The translations under genes were made by a program, and so were the position numbers. Positions 1 to 7,874 of a stretch of 64,000 nucleotides of DNA are shown piece after piece (within the stretch, counting starts at the first letter, position 1; each line of letters starts with the position of its first letter). The DNA comes from an uncultured virus (IMG/VR IMGVR_UViG_3300033388_000817) (taxonomy: Duplodnaviria; Heunggongvirae; Uroviricota; Caudoviricetes; Crassvirales): the IMG/VR virus record IMGVR_UViG_3300033388_000817; one strand, 5' to 3'. Below the pieces are notes generated by a model. That model made no database searches. It saw only the letters and a program-made list of their open reading frames with translations, and was not told where the DNA came from.

Positions 1-175
1 AAGAAGCTAATTGATCGCCATTAGGCAACACAAATTGTCTTGTGCCGTTTTTCTTCTGTCTTTCAGTAGTCATTTCTTTGATATTATACTCTACAAACAT
101 ACGTTTAGCAAATAAATCTACTAATTCTGCACGTCTTTGTTTCCAATTCATATGCTCTTGTTCTAAATCTCTCAT
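1..175 (-). CDS. small hypothetical protein (runs off window start)
   Basis: AACTATG start at 175 directly downstream of promoter motif copy 196-227; reads MRDLEQEHMNWKQRR... Confidence 0.6.
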   Translation of the reverse strand, partial: MRDLEQEHMNWKQRRAELVDLFAKRMFVEYNIKEMTTERQKKNGTRQFVLPNGDQLAS

Positions 176-192
176 AGTTTTAATTTAATTTA

Positions 193-402
193 TTATATTA
201 TCGATTCTTCTTCGTATTTAATTTGTAAATTCTCTAACGCTATTTTATAACCAAAGTTAATTGCCATTTGCATTAGTAAAATATCCATAGAACCTTGATT
301 AGCTTTAGCAAATGATTCTAGATAGTTCCTGTCTTTCGGCGTAGCTACGATACCTCGATCGAGCTTTGCCATTTCGCTTTTTATATATTTATTTATTTCC
401 AT
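193..402 (-). CDS. small hypothetical early protein
   Basis: 69-aa ORF, co-directional with the cluster. Confidence 0.7.
   Translation of the reverse strand: MEINKYIKSEMAKLDRGIVATPKDRNYLESFAKANQGSMDILLMQMAINFGYKIALENLQIKYEEESII
196..227 (-). promoter_or_regulatory. putative phage early promoter, copy 1
   Basis: Minus-strand consensus TACAWA-N3-AATACGA-N9-GATAATA, identical spacing in six copies. Confidence 0.75.
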
Positions 403-409
403 ACATAAT

Positions 410-562
410 TTATTCTTTTACCCACTCTACAATTTCTTTACACGTTTCTAAGACGTCTTCAAAGTAATCATTTTCTAAGTAATCTGGATCTTCATCGCCT
501 GCGGCGTCTGAGTATTTAATAGTGTTTAACAACTCATCTAGTTGTTGGTAAAGATATTTCAT
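410..562 (-). CDS. small acidic hypothetical protein (50 aa)
   Basis: Manual translation MKYLYQQLDELL...IVEWVKE*, AACTATG start. Confidence 0.65.
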   Translation of the reverse strand: MKYLYQQLDELLNTIKYSDAAGDEDPDYLENDYFEDVLETCKEIVEWVKE

Positions 563-588
563 AGTTATATTTTTAAATTAGTAATATT

Positions 589-655
589 TTAACAGTAGGC
601 ATTGCGACTCGGTAACGCTGCACCCTTCTTGTCCAGGCTTGGTACCTACTGTTAA
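589..655 (-). ncRNA. structured RNA module closed by a 13-bp stem
   Basis: UUAACAGUAGGUA/UGCCUACUGUUAA (one G-U pair on the minus strand) enclosing a GC-rich interior. Confidence 0.6.
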
Positions 656-659
656 TTAG

Positions 660-763
660 AGGACGTGGCAGGAATCGAACCTGCGTTACTGTATATGAGT
701 TAGTGGGCTACTGTCTTGCAGATTTACGCGCTAACTTCCAACAGCCTAACCATCTTCACGCCC
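660..763 (-). ncRNA. tmRNA-TLD-like, anticodon-less tRNA-like RNA
   Basis: Acceptor stem GGGCGUG/CACGUCC with G3-U70; T-arm GCAGG-UUCGAUU-CCUGC; D-loop-like UGGUUA without a D stem; long arm CUGU..AGUUAG/CUAACU..ACAG. Confidence 0.75.
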
Positions 764-768
764 AAATA

Positions 769-840
769 CCCAGACATTTCCTAAGCGCGGTGCACCACTG
801 TAATTAAACCGGTGCGCGTCTTTGTTATTTATTCGCTGGG
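769..840 (-). ncRNA. structured RNA module
   Basis: CCCAG/CUGGG closing stem, A-rich internal bubble, GCACC/GGUGC hairpin with loop containing UUAAUUAC. Confidence 0.55.
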
Positions 841-844
841 CTAA

Positions 845-954
845 TACAGTTATCTCTGTTTCCACGAGTTCATAACGATCCCTCGCCGCTTCAACAATCG
901 GACTTCCACCGTGCATGCAGTTAATTACTCTGCAACCCGTGATACTGCACTGTA
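845..954 (-). ncRNA. multi-branched structured RNA module
   Basis: UACAGU..UAUC/GAUA-ACUGUA closing helix; hairpins UGCAG-AGUAAUUAA-CUGCA, CGG-UGGAAGU-CCG (T-loop-like) and CGAG..CUCG. Confidence 0.55.
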
Positions 955-1032
955 CTACAATCATCGAGCCGACGTCACGCTGTACCTCGTCGTTAGACTT
1001 CTCGCTGTACTTGGTCGCCTTTAATCATGTAG
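955..1032 (-). ncRNA. structured RNA module with two hairpins sharing the loop motif GUACAGCG
   Basis: CUACA/UGUAG closing stem; GAC-CAAGUACAGCGAGAA-GUC and CGACG-AGGUACAGCGUGA-CGUCG. Confidence 0.55.
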
Positions 1033-1036
1033 CCTT

Positions 1037-1120
1037 GTAACTAGTGAGGATTCGAACCTCATACCCGTCGGTAGCCCGAGTCGCGAAGCCTGTCTTGCGT
1101 CTCTAACCTGACCTAGTTGC
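1037..1120 (-). ncRNA. anticodon-less tRNA-like RNA
   Basis: AACUAG/CUAGUU acceptor-like stem; T-arm UGAGG-UUCGAAU-CCUCA; D-loop-like AGGUUA; long arm GAGACGC/GCGACUC. Confidence 0.7.
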
Positions 1121-1121
1121 C

Positions 1122-1195
1122 GCTAGCTATTCACTTATGTACACACGTATCTCCTCCCTGAGTTCCTATGTGTCTAATTAAGCTACTCGTCTAGC
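1122..1195 (-). ncRNA. long irregular hairpin with a loop-E-like motif
   Basis: GCUAG/CUAGC, internal loop AGUA/GAA, GCUUA/UAAGU, ACACAUA/UACGUGU, CUC/GAG. Confidence 0.55.
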
Positions 1196-1383
1196 TATTT
1201 ACGTCGCCAAGCTTTGTGCACTGATGCACTTACTTCTTGGCTAACGACTTGTATTGTATTACCTGTTTTATGGTTTATTATAGGTATATAACTATAATCC
1301 TGAACTGTGCTACAAGGAACACATGTTTTATAACCATAATTTACTCTAATAGGGTGCACTACTGTGCCGCATTTACAATACAT
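1195..1383 (-). CDS. small zinc-ribbon-like protein (CxC...CxxC)
   Basis: MYCKCG...KTCVPCS; first gene after promoter copy 2; its stop codon abuts the RNA array. Confidence 0.75.
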   Translation of the reverse strand: MYCKCGTVVHPIRVNYGYKTCVPCSTVQDYSYIPIINHKTGNTIQVVSQEVSASVHKAWRRK

Positions 1384-1409
1384 AGTTTTATTTTTATTTG
1401 TTACAGTTA

Positions 1410-1441
1410 TATTATCAATAACTATTCGTATTATATTTGTA
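1410..1441 (-). promoter_or_regulatory. putative phage early promoter, copy 2
   Basis: Same 32-bp motif. Confidence 0.75.
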
Positions 1442-1607
1442 ATAACTTATTAAGAGCAACATTTATTACATATTGTTTCATTTCTTGATAGTCATCACCG
1501 TCAAGTGGTTGGTCGGCTAGTTGCCAATCAACACTATCTTCAATAATTTCTTTTATGTGATCCGCTACACCCTGTGCAATCGTATCTAGTTCTTTCATTT
1601 TACTCAT
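1431..1607 (-). CDS. small acidic hypothetical protein (58 aa)
   Basis: Manual translation MSKMKELDTIAQG...NKLLQI*. Confidence 0.65.
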   Translation of the reverse strand: MSKMKELDTIAQGVADHIKEIIEDSVDWQLADQPLDGDDYQEMKQYVINVALNKLLQI

Positions 1608-1608
1608 G

Positions 1609-1743
1609 TTATTTAAATTTATCTGCTACTTCGTATATTTCTTCTTTGTCTTCTGAATCTAGTCCAGGTGTTTGCTGAGCGTACATACGTAGTACATAAT
1701 GTACAAAAGTGCAGTCGTTTTCTGTTAGTTTAAGTGTTTTCAT
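1609..1743 (-). CDS. small hypothetical protein (44 aa)
   Basis: Manual translation MKTLKLTENDCTFVHYVLRMYAQ...DKFK*, abutting the next gene. Confidence 0.6.
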   Translation of the reverse strand: MKTLKLTENDCTFVHYVLRMYAQQTPGLDSEDKEEIYEVADKFK

Positions 1744-1861
1744 TTAATCTTGTTCTAATAATTCATATATTTCGCTAAGTGTCATTTCGTCCACTTCACA
1801 TTTCTTATAATTCTGTTGTACCCACCATTTAGACCACGCTAAATTCCATGGGTTAGTTTCT

Positions 1862-2122
1862 TTAGTTTCCACGTTGTATAAATTCTTCATTAGTTACCAT
1901 CCATTCACAGTTTATTATTTGATGTCCTGCGCCGTATAAAAACGATTCACAAGATTCTGTATCTGGATTCCATTCATTTTCTTTTGTACATAATGCGCTA
2001 ATGTCATATCTATACGCTTTACCATCTGTAAAATCTAATACAAATATATATTTAGCTGACTCATCTGCTACTGTTATTTTTTCTTCTTGCATATCATGCC
2101 ACTTTTTTATTGTATCGCTCAT
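1862..2122 (-). CDS. hypothetical protein
   Basis: ORF track 1862-2176; likely start MSDTIKK at 2122, overlapping the upstream stop. Confidence 0.65.
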   Translation of the reverse strand: MSDTIKKWHDMQEEKITVADESAKYIFVLDFTDGKAYRYDISALCTKENEWNPDTESCESFLYGAGHQIINCEWMVTNEEFIQRGN

Positions 2123-2373
2123 GTTTTTACTATTTCTATTAATTGTTTTACTGAATATCTTGATTGATGTTTCCACATACGGTTGTGAGTGAACTTTCGT
2201 GCTTTGGCCGAATAGGATTTCTTGCCGTTAATTTGTACGCGAGTGTACTCTGCATCTGTGAGTCCACTACACCTGCCGTCATGTGCGTGCTTGAGCCTAT
2301 GCACTCTTGCACGATTTTGTTGCGCCTGTTTAGCATAGAGACACAGTTCTTTCATGTTAGTTGGATTAGACAT
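2119..2373 (-). CDS. basic hypothetical protein
   Basis: 84-aa ORF overlapping both neighbours by a few nt. Confidence 0.65.
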   Translation of the reverse strand: MSNPTNMKELCLYAKQAQQNRARVHRLKHAHDGRCSGLTDAEYTRVQINGKKSYSAKARKFTHNRMWKHQSRYSVKQLIEIVKT

Positions 2374-2569
2374 AAGACCAGATTGTAGGTTTGTGTTCGA
2401 TATAAGTTAATCCTTGGTAGTTAAACCACGAGTTAATACCTTCTTGATCTTTATCGCTATTGTAGATGAAGGCAAATCTATTTGGTAATTCGCCAACATT
2501 GTAACCTTTATAGGTTATGTTGTTTAATTTGATAGTAGTTTTGTCTACTTGTTTGATTATATTTTGCAT
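2366..2569 (-). CDS. hypothetical protein
   Basis: 67 aa, AACTATG start after promoter copy 3. Confidence 0.7.
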   Translation of the reverse strand: MQNIIKQVDKTTIKLNNITYKGYNVGELPNRFAFIYNSDKDQEGINSWFNYQGLTYIEHKPTIWSYV

Positions 2570-2583
2570 AGTTTAATTTATTA

Positions 2584-2615
2584 TATTATCAATAGTTAAT
2601 CGTATTTCGTATGTA
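2584..2615 (-). promoter_or_regulatory. putative phage early promoter, copy 3
   Basis: Same 32-bp motif. Confidence 0.75.
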
Positions 2616-2858
2616 TTATAGTACGGATTTATCTGTACCTTGAAATGCTTTATGAGCATTGTGAGTAGCATAATTAGCTATTCCTTGTCTGAATTGCCAT
2701 TCACGCTTACGATATTCGTAGTCAGTACACCATTTGTACATAGCTATACTTGAAGTACAAGGTTTGTACTTAGTTTCAAACTCTTTTATTTGATTTAATT
2801 TATCAGTGATTAGACCTTTAGCGTCTAGCTCTTTAAATTTAGTATCTTGAAATTGCAT
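2616..2858 (-). CDS. hypothetical protein
   Basis: 80 aa, AACTATG start. Confidence 0.7.
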   Translation of the reverse strand: MQFQDTKFKELDAKGLITDKLNQIKEFETKYKPCTSSIAMYKWCTDYEYRKREWQFRQGIANYATHNAHKAFQGTDKSVL

Positions 2859-2862
2859 AGTA

Positions 2863-2997
2863 TTATTTATTAGTATTTTGATAAAATGTTATTCTTTCTT
2901 GAACGTCTTCACGAGTTATCTCGCCGCTCATTTGTTTTAGTATGTCGCTTGACATATCTATTTGTTTACCGTTAGGTAGATTTAGTATAAATTGCAT
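2863..2997 (-). CDS. small hypothetical protein
   Basis: Likely start MQFILNLP at 2997; the ORF-track upstream extension overlaps the mini-tRNA. Confidence 0.65.
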   Translation of the reverse strand: MQFILNLPNGKQIDMSSDILKQMSGEITREDVQERITFYQNTNK

Positions 2998-3020
2998 AGT
3001 ATTATTATTTAAGTTATTAT

Positions 3021-3064
3021 TAGTAGACATGGTGAGAATCGAACTCACGTTAACCATTATGTCT
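3021..3064 (-). ncRNA. mini-tRNA-like element (acceptor stem plus T-arm, no anticodon arm)
   Basis: AGACAU(A) AUGGUUAAC GUGAG-UUCGAUU-CUCAC (C)AUGUCU ACUA. Confidence 0.75.
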
Positions 3065-3076
3065 TTTTTATGTACA

Positions 3077-3196
3077 CTAGTAGAAATCGTAGTAGATATC
3101 CATAACTTTAGACTTTTGCTCGTCAGTTAATTTAGTGTAATGCTTGTCGTATAGTCGCCAAGATATTTTTAGTAATGTGTATGAAAATGTAGACAT
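3077..3196 (-). CDS. small hypothetical protein (39 aa)
   Basis: MSTFSYTLLKISWRLYDKHYTKLTDEQKSKVMDIYYDFY*, AACTATG start after promoter copy 4. Confidence 0.6.
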   Translation of the reverse strand: MSTFSYTLLKISWRLYDKHYTKLTDEQKSKVMDIYYDFY

Positions 3197-3232
3197 AGTT
3201 ATATTGTTTAAAGATTATTAATTAGTTTATTG

Positions 3233-3264
3233 TATTATCGATTTTGAGTCGTATTTAGTTTGTA
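3233..3264 (-). promoter_or_regulatory. putative phage early promoter, copy 4
   Basis: Same 32-bp motif. Confidence 0.75.
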
Positions 3265-3369
3265 TTGGTTTTTCGTAGTTCTCATCATTGAGAGTTCCAA
3301 AGAGTAGCTCGTCAAAATATTCTTCACGAGCTATAAATCTCTGTTGTAGTTTGCTATAGTAACTTTTCA

Positions 3370-3579
3370 TTAGTAGCAGATTTGACAGTTAATAGAATCC
3401 ATCGCTGAATAATCAACTTGGCCTGTTATCATCATAAAGATGAAGAAGGTAATTCCACCAATCGCTAATGGCATTAGTAAACCGAAAGCTATTACTTCCG
3501 CCACAACTTCTGTTAGTGGCTTTGATTTTACGTATTTAGTTACTGCAGGAATAAATCCTCTGAATTTGAAATTTGACAT
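3370..3579 (-). CDS. small membrane protein
   Basis: Hydrophobic segment VIAFGLLMPLAIGGITFFIFMMI; AACTATG start. Confidence 0.7.
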   Translation of the reverse strand: MSNFKFRGFIPAVTKYVKSKPLTEVVAEVIAFGLLMPLAIGGITFFIFMMITGQVDYSAMDSINCQICY

Positions 3580-3596
3580 AGTTATAATTTAGTTAT

Positions 3597-3642
3597 TAGT
3601 TGTCATAGTGTGAATCGAACACACTCGAGTACCATAATGACA
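3597..3642 (-). ncRNA. mini-tRNA-like element (acceptor stem plus T-arm, no anticodon arm)
   Basis: UGUCAU(U) AUGGUACUCGA GUGUG-UUCGAUU-CACAC (U)AUGACA ACUA. Confidence 0.75.
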
Positions 3643-3762
3643 TCGCTGTTTTCAACATTGTTTAGACAGGTGATGTACACAGCTTAACGCGCCTGTATAA
3701 TATCCAGTTTAGCCTGTTGCCTGCTCGGTTCGGATAGTCACCGTTTGGTAAAGAAGTAGTAG

Positions 3763-3993
3763 TTATACTACCTCTTTATCTCTTAGTACAACTGGCACAC
3801 TAGTTGAAGAAGTGTAAGAGCCATACTTTTCAAAGCAATTTATAGAAGATAATTTGTCTTTCATAATTTCATACACTTTATCGTGATTGTAAGTGAATGA
3901 TTTGCCTGATTTAAATTCTACATTGATAGTAGTATTTTTGCCGATTAAAGATTTTCTGATGACGAATCTTTTTGAAGTAATTGAATTTTGCAT
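3763..3993 (-). CDS. hypothetical early protein
   Basis: 76 aa, AACTATG start after promoter copy 5. Confidence 0.7.
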   Translation of the reverse strand: MQNSITSKRFVIRKSLIGKNTTINVEFKSGKSFTYNHDKVYEIMKDKLSSINCFEKYGSYTSSTSVPVVLRDKEVV

Positions 3994-4040
3994 AGTTAAA
4001 AGTATTTATTATTATTATTAGTATTTATTAGTTACATTAT

Positions 4041-4072
4041 TATTATCATTATGTATTCGTATTAAGTTTGTA
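4041..4072 (-). promoter_or_regulatory. putative phage early promoter, copy 5
   Basis: Same 32-bp motif. Confidence 0.75.
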
Positions 4073-4205
4073 ATAACTTGTATTGAAATCTTTGAAAGTA
4101 ATATATTTCATTTAGTATACACTTTGGCATTACATTTTGTATAATTACTTCTGGATTTTTTATTAGAAATAATTCTATTGATTGTATGTAAGTTATTCGT
4201 TTCAT
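4062..4205 (-). CDS. small hypothetical protein (47 aa)
   Basis: MKRITYIQSIELF...KLLQT*, AACTATG start after promoter copy 6. Confidence 0.5.
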   Translation of the reverse strand: MKRITYIQSIELFLIKNPEVIIQNVMPKCILNEIYYFQRFQYKLLQT

Positions 4206-4224
4206 AGTTAGTTTGTTACATTTA

Positions 4225-4256
4225 TATTATCATTATAACTTCGTATTAAGTATGTA
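4225..4256 (-). promoter_or_regulatory. putative phage early promoter, copy 6
   Basis: Same 32-bp motif. Confidence 0.75.
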
Positions 4257-4276
4257 AAATAGTTTAGTAGTAGAAT

Positions 4277-4383
4277 GTGACAAGATGTCATACCACTATG
4301 TCACTATGTCACTAACAATAGTATATTAAATATATGACGTAATGTCATGACAATCAGTCATATGTGTCATGTCAATGTGTCAT
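4277..4383. repeat. cluster of TGACA/TGTCA boxes, including TGACA-N3-TGTCA palindromes
   Basis: TGTCA at 4286, 4299, 4307, 4343, 4365, 4370, 4378; TGACA at 4278, 4348. Confidence 0.8.
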
Positions 4384-4615
4384 ACAGCTAAATCTCACAA
4401 GGAAAAGAAGAGCGAGACAGGATAATAACCTTGAAATCTAGGTAGAAAAGTCTAAACCCCCCGCTCGGGGCCCTGAAAAGTCGCATATATGACATGGAAA
4501 ATCCTAAAACGCACGCGGACCCGCAAATTTGAAACCCATTTCTCGTAGGGAAAAAGAAAGCGAGGATAGGGGGCAACACCATACCCCTATATTTGTAACA
4601 ACTTTTTTAAAAACA

Positions 4616-4660
4616 GTGACATAAGCCTTATAATATAGATAAGTAACACCCTATTGTCAC
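4616..4660 (+). promoter_or_regulatory. GTGACA...TGTCAC-bounded regulatory element (second copy at 62941-62986)
   Basis: GTGACA-N-GCCTTATAA-N4-ATAAGTAA-N8-TGTCAC upstream of the structural operon. Confidence 0.65.
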
Positions 4661-4728
4661 ACTTTATGTAAAAACACTTCAAAACCTGTAATGATATAGA
4701 CTAAAGAAAACAAACAAAAACTAACTAA

Positions 4729-5187
4729 ATGTCTATAATTCAAAGTTATCCAAAAGGTACGCCTAAAAAAGAAGATTATGTAATAGGTACATCTATACCT
4801 ACGGCTAATTCTGATGAAACGCCAACTACTAGAAACTTTTTAGTAGGATCAATAGTTGATCTAGCAAATAGTACAAGTTTAGGTTACACATCATACGTAG
4901 CTTTAATAAGTCAAACAGGAACAAACGATCCTATAGCTACACAATTAGCTAACACAACTAATAAAACATTTACATTCACTAGAGCATCAAATGGAAGTTA
5001 TAGCATAATCGCATCAGGTAGTTTGTTTACCTCAGGTAAAACTATAGTGTTTTTAAATGGAGGCGCTGCAGAAAATAATCATGACGTAGCGTGGCTAAGA
5101 GTAAGTGATACTATTATAAACCTAGAAACACATAACAGCGACAATAAATTTACAAACGGTTCTTTAGAAATAAGAATATACTCATAA
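4729..5187 (+). CDS. putative virion/tail-fibre-associated protein
   Basis: 152 aa, T/S/G-rich; N-terminus resembles the next gene (I-x-SYP). Confidence 0.6.
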   Translation: MSIIQSYPKGTPKKEDYVIGTSIPTANSDETPTTRNFLVGSIVDLANSTSLGYTSYVALISQTGTNDPIATQLANTTNKTFTFTRASNGSYSIIASGSLFTSGKTIVFLNGGAAENNHDVAWLRVSDTIINLETHNSDNKFTNGSLEIRIYS

Positions 5188-5196
5188 AATTAACAC

Positions 5197-5904
5197 ATGG
5201 CTAGAATAAGTTCGTATCCATTTGATACAACTGTCACAGATAATGACGCATGGATAGGAACTGACGCGGCAAACAGACAGACAAAGCAATTCACTGCATC
5301 GGCAGTAGCTAAATATCTAAACCTTAACGCTAAAGTTAATATAGGTGGCCAAATGTCTTTTAAGTGGTCTGATACACAAAACGGTGGAGCAGGTACTATA
5401 TCTAAAACTGGTGGTGGTGGATCTGGTGATTCTCTTGATACTTTAACACAAGTAAGAATATCTATAACAGAACTAAATGGTCAAAATGTAGTTAAGTTTT
5501 TAGAGTATATAACAGGTACACCTATATTACTAGGTCAAGGTGATCAGATAAGTCAGTTTGGTAATTATACACTAGACACTTACACTGTAGATCCTGCAGA
5601 TCCTTTTTACTATATAGCTGATTTAACTTACATCGGTGGTAATGGAGTTATCGCTCCACAAGGAACTCAATATACGTTAATACACTTTAATATACAAGGT
5701 GCTGATGTAAATTTAAAACAAGATTTTTCCTCTTCAGCACAATGGGTTATAAACAATACAACAGGCAAAGCGGAGCCTTCAGTTACATTAACTGACAATT
5801 CAAATCCGCCAAAAGAAATAAAAGGATGTGTAACATACACAAACGCAACAACAATAACAGTTGATTTTGACCAGTCGGTGGCAGGTTCATCAATACTAAA
5901 CTAA
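5197..5904 (+). CDS. putative virion/tail-fibre-associated protein
   Basis: 235 aa, G/T-rich, beta-type composition. Confidence 0.6.
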   Translation: MARISSYPFDTTVTDNDAWIGTDAANRQTKQFTASAVAKYLNLNAKVNIGGQMSFKWSDTQNGGAGTISKTGGGGSGDSLDTLTQVRISITELNGQNVVKFLEYITGTPILLGQGDQISQFGNYTLDTYTVDPADPFYYIADLTYIGGNGVIAPQGTQYTLIHFNIQGADVNLKQDFSSSAQWVINNTTGKAEPSVTLTDNSNPPKEIKGCVTYTNATTITVDFDQSVAGSSILN

Positions 5905-5924
5905 TAAACTAAAAAAAACAAACT

Positions 5925-7874
5925 ATGCCTATTAATTACTACTGCGCCATTGCGATGAATGGCTCTGACATTGAGATGAACAAAAATCAGCTGCAATTGC
6001 CGGTTATTGACAATGAATCATCAGCACCTACATCACCAGTCGAAGGTCAAATGTATTTTGACACGAGCGTCGGTGACAAAACAATGTATTTCTACAATGG
6101 AACTGCATGGATAGAAATGGATGGTTCTGGCTCAGGTGTAGAATCTTTTACAAATGCTAATGGTACATATATATCTGCAACTACTGTTAATACAGCGGCA
6201 ACAGGTGCTGTAACAGTTGGAACTATAGATCTTAGTGCTGCAGACGGAACAGACACGAGTGGCAGATTTTTAAGTAAAGATAATGTTTGGTCAGCAATTG
6301 ACGCAGGCGTTACAACCGTAGATACAACAGATGGTACATATATTGACTTAACTCCTAACACAGCAACATCAGGCGCTGTGACGGTAACTGCAGATTTAAG
6401 CGCGATTGATGGTACGTCTAGTACTACAACTAGATTTTTATCTAAAGACAATACTTGGGATATTCCTTCTTATACCACAAACACAGACGAAACATATACA
6501 TTACCAGTCGCTGCAGGTGCTGCTAATTCTGCTTATCTTAACTTAACAGCTGGAGGTACTGGTTCAGGTATTAAATCTTCTACACAAATAACTGGAGATA
6601 CTACTACTATTAAAGTTACTCCAACTGCTGGAAACAACGGAAATATACTTTTTGATTTACAAGATGACGTTACAATAACAACCTCATTAACAATAAGTGG
6701 AAGCGCAGGTGATGCATTGGATATTCCTTCTGGTAAGGGAACAAGTGCTTTAACTATAGGAACTGATCCTTCTGATACATTAACAACTAAAAGTTATGTT
6801 GATGGTTTAGTTTCAGGTGGTTTAACTTTTAAAGGTACTTTTAGAGCTGATACAGGTGCTATACTCTCAGGAGGTAATTCTGGTTCTTTCTTATATAATT
6901 GTCCAGGTGGTGCAGGAACTAGAGTAGCCGTAACGCAAGGTGATTACTACGTGGTTGCAACAGCGGGAGGTTCTTTCTATTGTTCAGGTGTTACACTAGA
7001 TATTGGTGATGCTATTATAGCTGTAGATGATGCGGCAGCTGATTCTTCAGACGCGGCTGATTGGTCAACAATATCACAAGGTGTTACTGTGAATAGTTTT
7101 ACAAATGCCAATGGTACTTATATTTCTGCTGGCACGGTAAACACTAACGCCACTGGGGCGGTAACAGTAGGTACAATAGATTTATCTGCCGTAGACGGAA
7201 CTTCTGATACATCTACAAAATTCTTAAGTAAAGACAACACATGGGATGTACCTTCCTACACAACAAATACTGACGCTAAATATGCATTGCAAGCAGATCC
7301 TAAAAGTGGATCAGACGTTCCTTTAACATTAAACGGTTCAGATGGTGGTGCAGATACTACTGTAAATCTAACACAAGGAACAGGTATAACATTAACTAGA
7401 AATAGCGCTACACAAATAACAATAGCAGCTGATAACAATGGTGATATAACAGATGTAGAAGCTTCAACTGTAAACGCGGAACTAGGTATTAAAGTAACAG
7501 ATGGCTCTGGTCCTATACCAAAAGTTGGTCTTGATATTAAAGGACTTTCTGACGTTGGAACGGGACTTTCTGGCGCTGATCAATTTCCTATATATGATGT
7601 AACTGCAGATGCAAACAAATACGTCCAAGCATCTAACTTAGCTCCTATTGTAAGAAAATCAAGCACTATAGCTACTACAATAACTTCTTTTGGAACTGTA
7701 ACACACGGTCTAGGATCTTTCGATGTAATAGTTCAACTTTATGATGCTAGTACTTATGAAACAATATATGCTTGTGTTGATAGAGCTACTGTTGATACTG
7801 TTGCTATATCTGGAGGTAGTTTCCCGGCAGGAAACATAAGAGTGTTAGTTTCTCTTGCTGATCAAGGAGCATAA
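5925..7874 (+). CDS. tail fibre-like protein with internal repeats
   Basis: PxxGQMYFDT..MYFYNGTAW and TTKSYVD fibre motifs; three GTYI...DLSA.DG...FLSKDN.W repeats. Confidence 0.75.
   Translation: MPINYYCAIAMNGSDIEMNKNQLQLPVIDNESSAPTSPVEGQMYFDTSVGDKTMYFYNGTAWIEMDGSGSGVESFTNANGTYISATTVNTAATGAVTVGTIDLSAADGTDTSGRFLSKDNVWSAIDAGVTTVDTTDGTYIDLTPNTATSGAVTVTADLSAIDGTSSTTTRFLSKDNTWDIPSYTTNTDETYTLPVAAGAANSAYLNLTAGGTGSGIKSSTQITGDTTTIKVTPTAGNNGNILFDLQDDVTITTSLTISGSAGDALDIPSGKGTSALTIGTDPSDTLTTKSYVDGLVSGGLTFKGTFRADTGAILSGGNSGSFLYNCPGGAGTRVAVTQGDYYVVATAGGSFYCSGVTLDIGDAIIAVDDAAADSSDAADWSTISQGVTVNSFTNANGTYISAGTVNTNATGAVTVGTIDLSAVDGTSDTSTKFLSKDNTWDVPSYTTNTDAKYALQADPKSGSDVPLTLNGSDGGADTTVNLTQGTGITLTRNSATQITIAADNNGDITDVEASTVNAELGIKVTDGSGPIPKVGLDIKGLSDVGTGLSGADQFPIYDVTADANKYVQASNLAPIVRKSSTIATTITSFGTVTHGLGSFDVIVQLYDASTYETIYACVDRATVDTVAISGGSFPAGNIRVLVSLADQGA

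Follow-up and report, generated by a model that had tools for sequence, protein, structure and literature searches.

Selected tRNA-like minihelices directly before small genes in an uncultured marine phage and its relatives

A 64,000-nucleotide (nt) stretch of DNA from IMGVR_UViG_3300033388_000817, an uncultured marine phage, was analyzed over its whole length (hereafter the window). It carries two short elements, E1 and E2, each of which joins an acceptor stem to a T-arm in the manner of the top half of a transfer RNA (tRNA) and stands directly before a small gene. The two elements are not chance occurrences and their fold is under selection. They belong to a large family that is present in viral contigs and has no Rfam family, and no account of such phage elements turned up in full-text literature searches. 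Novel aspects are the size of the marine family, its near-invariant GG, a trailer in common with genuine tRNA genes, continuity with coding-less RNAs resembling transfer-messenger RNA (tmRNA), and copy-number polymorphism.

Results

Architecture of E1 and E2

Both elements lie on the minus strand, the strand of every open reading frame (ORF) in positions 1-4205 (Table 1). In E1, a 6-base-pair (bp) acceptor stem (AGACAU/AUGUCU) is followed by an A·C mismatch at position 7, a 9-nt linker, AUGGUUAAC, that begins AUGGU, the T-arm GUGAG-UUCGAUU-CUCAC and the tail ACUA. E2 repeats this plan with the acceptor UGUCAU/AUGACA (6 bp), a U·U at position 7, the 11-nt linker AUGGUACUCGA, again beginning AUGGU, the T-arm GUGUG-UUCGAUU-CACAC and the same tail. 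Every component that an initial annotation had described (6-bp acceptor, mismatch at pair 7, AUGGU linker of 9-11 nt, 5-bp T-stem, UUCGAUU loop, ACUA) is thus present in both copies. The compensatory differences that it listed are likewise found: acceptor pairs 1 and 3 and T-stem pair 4 are each A-U in E1 and U-A in E2. Judging from its sequence, the linker with its GG could replace the D-loop at the elbow.

The next ATG comes 23 nt after E1 (ATG 2997) and 17 nt after E2 (ATG 3579), close to the earlier estimate of about 20 nt. E1 lies between two ORFs, and E2 follows a 120-nt ORF-free leader. The AUG of the AUGGU motif was considered as the start of a conserved frame and rejected, being in frame with the next gene in E1 but opening a frame that ends after 10 codons in E2. 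ARAGORN found no tRNA genes in the window and no Rfam family reached its gathering score there; at a permissive threshold, the best Rfam match of E1 was tmRNA (RF00023, 15.5 bits, E = 0.0027, gathering score 47).

Covariation across a viral family

Relatives were sought with the pattern ATGGT, 4-10 free bases, GTGNGTTCGATTCNCAC, which constrains neither acceptor strand. It matched at least 121 viral contig stretches. Among the matches listed, 66 of 81 distinct ones have all six flanking pairs in one of two registers, against an arithmetical expectation of ~0.6% for random hexamers. In an alignment of 66 sequences, drawn from the matches listed and with rows preselected for 6/6 acceptor pairing, 95.3% of cells are paired (68.3% in shuffles) and the observed covariation score was reached by none of 500 shuffles. 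All seven acceptor positions in this alignment have changed on both sides, and position 7, where present (42 sequences), is unpaired in 33. Covariation is also seen at the T-stem pair that the pattern does not fix (A-U 42, G-C 13, U-A 8). Because G·U pairs occur on the gene strand, for example 11 U·G at pair 6, the fold is specific to that strand. The tails are ACUA in 37 copies, ACAA in nine and UCUA in seven; an extra 3' nucleotide gives 12 stack layers in 41 of the 66, and the remaining 25 have 11. The acceptor sequences themselves vary freely between phages.

The same pattern was applied to bacterial DNA as a control. Its matches in 91 bacterial loci comprised 59 true tRNAs, none of them with flanking acceptor pairing, and only 11 copies of the minihelix type; the corresponding figures for viral loci were 107 minihelices and a single tRNA among 123. 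Bacterial assemblies outside the marine group also contain mini-type copies whose flanks pair perfectly; these assemblies are L240, L266 and L278 (Enterococcus cecorum and metagenome-assembled genomes, MAGs), L224 (a gut Bacteroidales MAG) and L102. In Enterococcus cecorum and two MAGs the tail of these copies is UUUA in place of ACUA. Mini-type copies in bacterial assemblies may lie in prophages.

A second retrieval made no use of the element and relied on a motif of the upstream leader. An acceptor plus T-arm element was present in 57 of 59 distinct contexts retrieved in this way, and 55 of the 57 begin 0-6 nt past the leader. In this leader-anchored set the GG of the linker is kept while the preceding bases vary (AUGG, ACGG, AAGG, AGGG, UUGG); the T-loop is kept too, as is a discriminator A followed by C, with the tail ACUA in 37 of 57 copies and ACAA in 12. 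A covariance model, R2, was then built from 48 copies of other phages, with the copies of the window and their closest look-alikes excluded. Over both strands of the 64 kb its two best matches were E1 (64 bits, E = 4.6e-16) and E2 (52 bits, E = 1.8e-12), with the next at E = 0.77; model R1 gave 66.1 and 57.4 bits, respectively. Covariation in over 100 phage contigs thus lends strong support to the tRNA-mimic architecture of acceptor, T-arm and GG linker proposed in the initial annotation. The counter-case named there, a DNA-level tRNA 3' remnant lacking conserved acceptor pairing, is excluded, as the acceptor pairing is conserved.

Among 89 records sharing the terminase, the three searched with R1 (Cellulophaga phage phi19:3, Flavobacterium phage elemoA_7-9A and MW202828) gave no match at E < 0.1, and blastn of E1 matched only the T-arms of true tRNAs. 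Directly after its tRNA-Cys, phi19:3 carries two stand-alone T-arm-like hairpins (L186:3030-3100) with the loops UUCGAUU and UUCGAAU; no acceptor stem is apparent around them.

Placement between co-oriented genes and variation in copy number

Of 63 distinct contexts, 61 have a same-strand ORF of at least 35 codons that starts within 150 nt downstream of the minihelix, at a median distance of 21 nt (−1 to 117), and in 62 a same-strand frame ends within 200 nt upstream. Most marine relatives place the element after a structured leader and a very conserved gene for a 76-amino-acid (aa) protein; the position of E1 between two ORFs indicates that the minihelix can also stand alone. The element was present in only the same phage and one 88% relative among 55 loci fetched through a 649-aa protein, and so is not linked to that gene. 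Five complete ~70-kb genomes hold 1, 1, 1, 1 and 3 copies. In contigs of other phage groups with a higher guanine-cytosine (GC) content (L113 and L082), three copies each are found, with a conserved spacer after every copy (in L113 a GGGAG Shine-Dalgarno-like word and then ATG), such that the elements appear as repeated units before successive genes.

The sequence is contained in 23 sequencing runs, eight of them recorded as RNA. Among marine RNA-library contigs, one strain has positions 3001-3080 (E1 and its flanks) replaced by 12 letters, and another lacks 3006-3592, with 3005 joined to 3593 and one element left. These strains, one without E1 and one with an E1-E2 deletion, indicate that copies are gained, lost and recombined.

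A trailer in common with genuine tRNA genes

In 23 genuine tRNA genes of the same loci, counted without the tRNA-cluster contigs L075 and L119, N73-CUA follows in 15 and CCA in none. Most of these tRNAs are initiator-like tRNA-Met, which in several loci shares the strand of the minihelix and is encoded ~2 kb downstream. The initiator-like tRNA-Met of L067, L072, L074, L076, L087, L088, L112, L012 and other loci has a CAU anticodon, three G-C pairs in the anticodon stem, and A1·A72 or U1-A72; the true tRNA genes of these loci end in N73-CUAA, not CCA. The tRNA-Cys of phi19:3 has the same N-CUA trailer. As this trailer is common to both, the minihelices carry the 3' flank of the tRNA genes of this phage group. 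It is the best indirect sign in the sequences and suggests that the 3' tRNA-processing machinery sees the minihelices.

Longer relatives form a graded series

Linkers of 25-84 nt are found in 8 of the 57 leader-anchored copies, and linker lengths as a whole form a graded series, from 9 to at least 84 nt, of which E1 and E2 are the shortest members. Two longer forms, E3 and E4, are present in the window (Table 1). E3 is 99% identical in the otherwise diverged loci L090, L062 and L065; its acceptor is invariant among the copies seen and hence provides no covariation evidence.

E4-type RNAs are represented by 23 distinct copies of 75-130 nt. G1-C72 and G2-C71 are kept in 23 of 23, G3·U70 in 20, A73 in 22 and the tail ACUA in 20, and pair 4 covaries. 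In all 10 loci tested the match to Rfam tmRNA is end-to-end, at 34-38 bits (E ~1e-10); it stays short of the gathering score since the entire middle part is absent. By these features, E4-type RNAs could be a phage "mini-tmRNA" chargeable with alanine. Relatives include L076:5265-5349, which ends 2 nt before a tRNA-Met gene, and L090:5357-5466. The start of the linker (AAUGGUUA-like) and its end (AAC-like) are shared by the mini and E4 types, so the minis look like an E4 scaffold without the central insert and without alanine identity.

E3 and E4 both lie in a region of ~700 nt (~590-1290, minus strand) that is GC-richer than its neighbors, has no convincing ORF, and is built of blocks mosaically common to relatives at 70-99% identity. 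It probably holds further structured RNA; an Rfam search of this region returned nothing beyond a weak tmRNA-clan match.

Discussion

Relation to known tRNA-like systems

With canonical tRNA (RF00005; ARAGORN), E1 and E2 have the T-arm in common: in both, a 5-bp T-stem carries a 7-nt loop, UUCGAUU, that fits UUCRANY. The cloverleaf is absent, with only 9-11 nt between acceptor stem and T-arm, and the acceptor has six pairs and a mismatch at 7, followed by an A-CUA tail and not by an encoded CCA; the same trailer follows 15 of the 23 genuine tRNA genes of these loci. McClain, Guerrier-Takada and Altman reportedly found in 1987 that acceptor and T-arm are what bacterial ribonuclease (RNase) P needs in minihelix model substrates, and Francklyn and Schimmel are said to have established in 1989 that acceptor/T-arm minihelices are substrates of aminoacyl-tRNA synthetases. 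Such substrates stack an acceptor stem on a T-arm as E1 and E2 do, but they are laboratory constructs ending in RCCA, whereas the phage elements are natural, have an additional GG linker and end in A-CUA. The ~12-bp acceptor/T stack closed by a T-loop that makes a minimal RNase P substrate is present (six pairs plus position 7, and five pairs); the 3' RCCA that pairs with the P15 loop is not, the ACUA tail of E1 and E2 having a single C.

The tRNA-like domain of tmRNA (RF00023) resembles E1 and E2 in having an acceptor stem, a GG D-loop analogue and a T-arm but no anticodon arm. The G3·U70 identity pair is confined to the E4 type, pair 3:70 being A-U or U-A in the minis, and the tag frame, the pseudoknots and the helix leading toward them have no counterpart in a linker of 9-11 nt; the RF00023 score of E1 is far from the gathering value. 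Forms of tmRNA without a coding part exist in jakobid mitochondria. In MALAT1 mascRNA, in mitochondrial tRNA punctuation and in the C4 RNA precursor of phages P1 and P7, a tRNA-like fold that lies inside a longer RNA brings in RNase P, alone or together with RNase Z, to generate RNA ends. These systems, from other organisms, fold more fully, in the manner of a cloverleaf, and a two-helix element of 44 nt before phage genes is not among them. No Y RNA family was among the Rfam matches up to E = 10 in positions 1-5000, and the bacterial Y RNA (YrlA) module differs in its Ro-binding stem, closed by the 5' and 3' ends, none of which was seen at E1 or E2.

The t-elements of plant mitochondria offer a close functional analogy. 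According to Forner et al. (2007, PMC1920247), cuts by RNase P and RNase Z at t-elements form mRNA ends, the element ends coincide with mRNA 5' and 3' ends, and released t-elements receive untemplated C and A. As described there, t-elements are tRNA-like folds with a conserved T-arm inside an mRNA precursor; E1 and E2 may resemble them in this, being presumably co-transcribed with the co-oriented ORFs that flank such elements in 61 of 63 contexts. On the same description, t-elements are organellar, non-canonical cloverleaves of ~74 nt, whereas the phage elements measure 42-46 nt and have neither D nor anticodon arm. Of the t-element T-arm motif given there, GGTTCRANYCC, E1 and E2 match the core TTCGATT and not the flanking GG/CC (their T-stems are GUGAG and GUGUG). 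The phage elements differ further from t-elements as portrayed there in their GG linker and fixed N-CUA trailer; no homology links the two.

A candidate processing signal

We tentatively favor the reading, at a little under even confidence, that E1 and E2 are sites where host RNase P and a 3' tRNA-processing nuclease cut, punctuating early polycistronic RNA in the way of plant t-elements. Starting from a selected fold that is set between co-oriented genes and carries the trailer of true tRNA genes, we infer transcription, both cleavages and a benefit to the phage as follows. E1 and E2 would be transcribed within a leftward polycistronic RNA of small, presumably early, genes; each would fold as a coaxial acceptor/T-arm stack, with the GG of AUGGU docking on the T-loop to form an elbow, and would be taken for a pre-tRNA by the tRNA-maturation enzymes of the host. 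RNase P would then cleave at the 5' end of the acceptor stem and an RNase Z-type 3' nuclease at the A-CUA trailer, so that the upstream cistron or leader is split off, the downstream cistron gains a fixed 5' terminus, placed 17-23 nt ahead of its start codon, and a ~40-nt minihelix is freed as a by-product. If RNase P alone were to cut, a flush helix would close off the downstream 5' end, and a message that begins fully paired should withstand decay of the 5'-end-dependent kind.

The processing reading, one of those offered in the initial annotation, gains indirect support from the position of the elements between co-oriented genes (61/63), from the N-CUA trailer shared with genuine tRNA genes, and from the repeated units that precede successive genes in the GC-richer phages. 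An acceptor sequence that is free to vary fits a signal of shape only and not of amino-acid identity. Together with tight placement before ORFs, the repeated units and the trailer, this favors a role in cis as a cutting signal. If this reading is true, phages have independently reached the logic of mitochondrial tRNA punctuation, with the smallest natural tRNA mimic that keeps an elbow; it would add a new layer of gene expression for phages of Bacteroidota-type hosts, whose messages have no Shine-Dalgarno sites, and provide a compact natural RNA-processing part for synthetic operons.

Several observations weigh against the processing reading. The stems are AU-rich and weak (−8 to −11 kcal/mol), the minimum-energy fold of E2 differs from the proposed one, and the fold-energy z-scores are not significant (E1 −0.69, E2 −1.31), so energy alone cannot support the fold. 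The E1/E2 tail is not RCCA. In many relatives the leader helix ends 0-6 nt before the acceptor stem, which leaves RNase P little single-stranded 5' leader. With one to three minihelices per ~70-kb genome, most gene junctions have none. RNA-library contigs (four runs of one study) cover most of positions 1-6000 but show no ends, strand or level and possibly derive from DNA. Moreover, the near-invariant GG, the T-loop and A73-C74 should exceed the needs of a bare RNase P hairpin; this conservation of elbow and A73-C74, together with paralogues of alanine/tmRNA identity in the same operon, suggests selection for released, functional tRNA-like RNAs.

Alternative explanations

The main rival, which we take seriously although it is on balance doubtful, holds that selection acts on the minihelix once freed: excised and given a CCA end, a ~40-nt tRNA top half would act in trans as a decoy or sponge, and factors that handle tRNA or tmRNA (SmpB, EF-Tu, the CCA-adding enzyme or T-loop-modifying enzymes, for instance) could be its targets. 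What the minihelix retains is what RNase P, RNase Z, the CCA-adding enzyme, EF-Tu and SmpB make use of, and the near-invariant GG and T-loop and the prevalent A73-C74 of the tails fit proteins that bind elbow and tail. A function in trans is also in keeping with tmRNA as the best Rfam match of E1 and with the linker ends and tail common to mini and long forms. The alanine and tmRNA features of the E4 type, from the first two G-C pairs, G3·U70 and A73 to the tmRNA match in every locus tested, make charged trans-acting tRNA-like RNAs from this operon plausible, and in PMC11662646 an anti-CRISPR complex is served by t(m)RNA fragments. Against this, the freely varying acceptor leaves the minis without amino-acid identity, CCA is not encoded, and no target system was identified; the minis sit directly before ORFs (at the median of 21 nt) and not in the RNA-gene cluster that holds E3, E4 and, in relatives, tRNA-Met, and the repeated units of the GC-richer phages look like cis elements. 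A released minihelix acting in this way would be a new class of RNA counter-defense or translation-hijacking factor. Broader, and unlikely in our estimation, is a phage toolkit of anticodon-less RNAs with tRNA-like domains (E1 and E2 as its minimal members, the E3 type and the alanine-identity "mini-tmRNA" E4 type) that would be excised from the early transcript by the tRNA enzymes of the host, CCA-tailed, and act in trans on the tRNA and ribosome-rescue machinery of the host.

An uncleaved 5' untranslated region in which the tRNA-like knob shields the message from 5'-end-dependent decay, or offers a standby or recruitment site to ribosomes in a host without Shine-Dalgarno pairing, would suit the unstructured AU-rich spacer and start codon that always follow, the window start sites without a Shine-Dalgarno motif, and the conserved upstream helix that adjoins the element in relatives. 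It is quite improbable: start-codon spacings from −1 to 117 nt speak against precise positioning of ribosomes, and a plain hairpin would protect equally, yet T-loop, GG and tRNA-gene trailer are conserved. Origin by internal deletion from longer tRNA-like genes is suggested by the graded linkers, which might make the minis decaying, functionless remnants of tRNA or tmRNA-like genes; decay is very hard to reconcile with compensatory changes that maintain acceptor pairing across many phage lineages, with conserved deletion boundaries and GG motif, and with copies that recur in unrelated GC-rich phage contigs, and we consider it very improbable. Barely credible, finally, is a site acting at the DNA level (an attachment-site tRNA fragment, a recombination hot spot or an origin). 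The RNA-library contigs with E1 replaced or with a deletion between the copies could be cited for it, but such deletions are expected from homologous recombination of two similar 45-nt repeats; the element has its 5' acceptor strand, which covaries, G·U pairs restrict the fold to one strand, and there is no integrase among the 29 large ORFs scanned.

Gene setting, leader and host

Table 1. Positions of the minihelices, their longer relatives and the adjoining features in the window.
Feature	Position	Strand	Remarks
E1, 44-nt tRNA-like minihelix	3064..3021	−	sequence reading; models R1 and R2
E2, 46-nt tRNA-like minihelix	3642..3597	−	sequence reading; models R1 and R2
E3, long-linker relative	1118..1035	−	acceptor AACUAG/CUAGUU; 51-nt linker opening with GG motif; T-loop UUCGAAU; tail ACAA
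E4, tmRNA-like tRNA-like domain without coding part	763..657	−	7-bp acceptor; G3·U70; 72-nt central insert; T-arm; tail UCUA
ORF, 44 aa	2863..2997	−	likely ATG 2997, 23 nt past E1; no family match
ORF, 39 aa	3077..3196	−	stop codon 12 nt before E1
ORF, 69 aa	3370..3579	−	starts 17 nt after E2; no family match
Structured leader without ORF	3643..3762	−	120 nt between 76-aa gene and E2; upstream-sequence comparison
Conserved 76-aa gene	3763..3993	−	precedes leader and minihelix in most relatives

The nearby stop codon of the 39-aa ORF makes E1 intercistronic. Among the small ORFs around E1 and E2, neither the 20 proteins searched against Pfam nor the 16 searched against PHROG gave a match, and positions 1-4205 hold only small minus-strand ORFs, none with a family match. 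The claim of the initial annotation that the elements lie upstream of early genes stands in so far as both directly precede small genes; "early" is a presumption from the size and position of these leftward genes.

Two modules are recognizable in the leader of E2, a covarying hairpin (~3742..3701) and a further stem-loop (~3694..3643) adjoining the minihelix. In loci L060-L172, the hairpin upstream of the minihelix appears as covarying 6-bp stems around GAACC...AAACU; in the other module, an H-type pseudoknot can form when the loop of a 4-5-bp stem pairs with a GAAYRAGU word directly preceding the minihelix. In a related leader type, 91.5% of this helix/pseudoknot is paired and two positions show three pair types, and 127 of 500 shuffles reach its covariation score; a leader helix or pseudoknot is suggestive only. 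The 76-aa gene upstream is far better conserved than its neighbors: its protein has 3012 homologous metagenome clusters, with at least 79% identity among the 120 matches listed. The protein has a confident AlphaFold model (predicted local distance difference test, pLDDT, 87.5), for which Foldseek found no PDB match at E up to 0.001, and tblastn found no deposited phage record with the protein.

The 29 large ORFs scanned include matches to terminase, portal and virion proteins, GroEL, ribonucleotide reductase, a ThyX-type thymidylate synthase, a primase-helicase and a sigma-factor-like protein. Judged by terminase, the nearest deposited phage is an uncultured podovirus at 63% identity, followed by Flavobacterium and Cellulophaga phages at ~44%. 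The start sites of the window have no Shine-Dalgarno motif, which suggests a Bacteroidota-type host.

Within positions 2400-4800, the terminator scan found none near E1 or E2, and a sigma-70 scan was uninformative (23 promoter-like sites against 14.7 expected). The sole terminator-like hairpin of this interval (4473-4454) lies in the intergenic region 4206-4728, from which the small leftward genes diverge from the plus-strand structural genes. This region contains many short TGTCA/TGACA-type repeats and is probably a control region.

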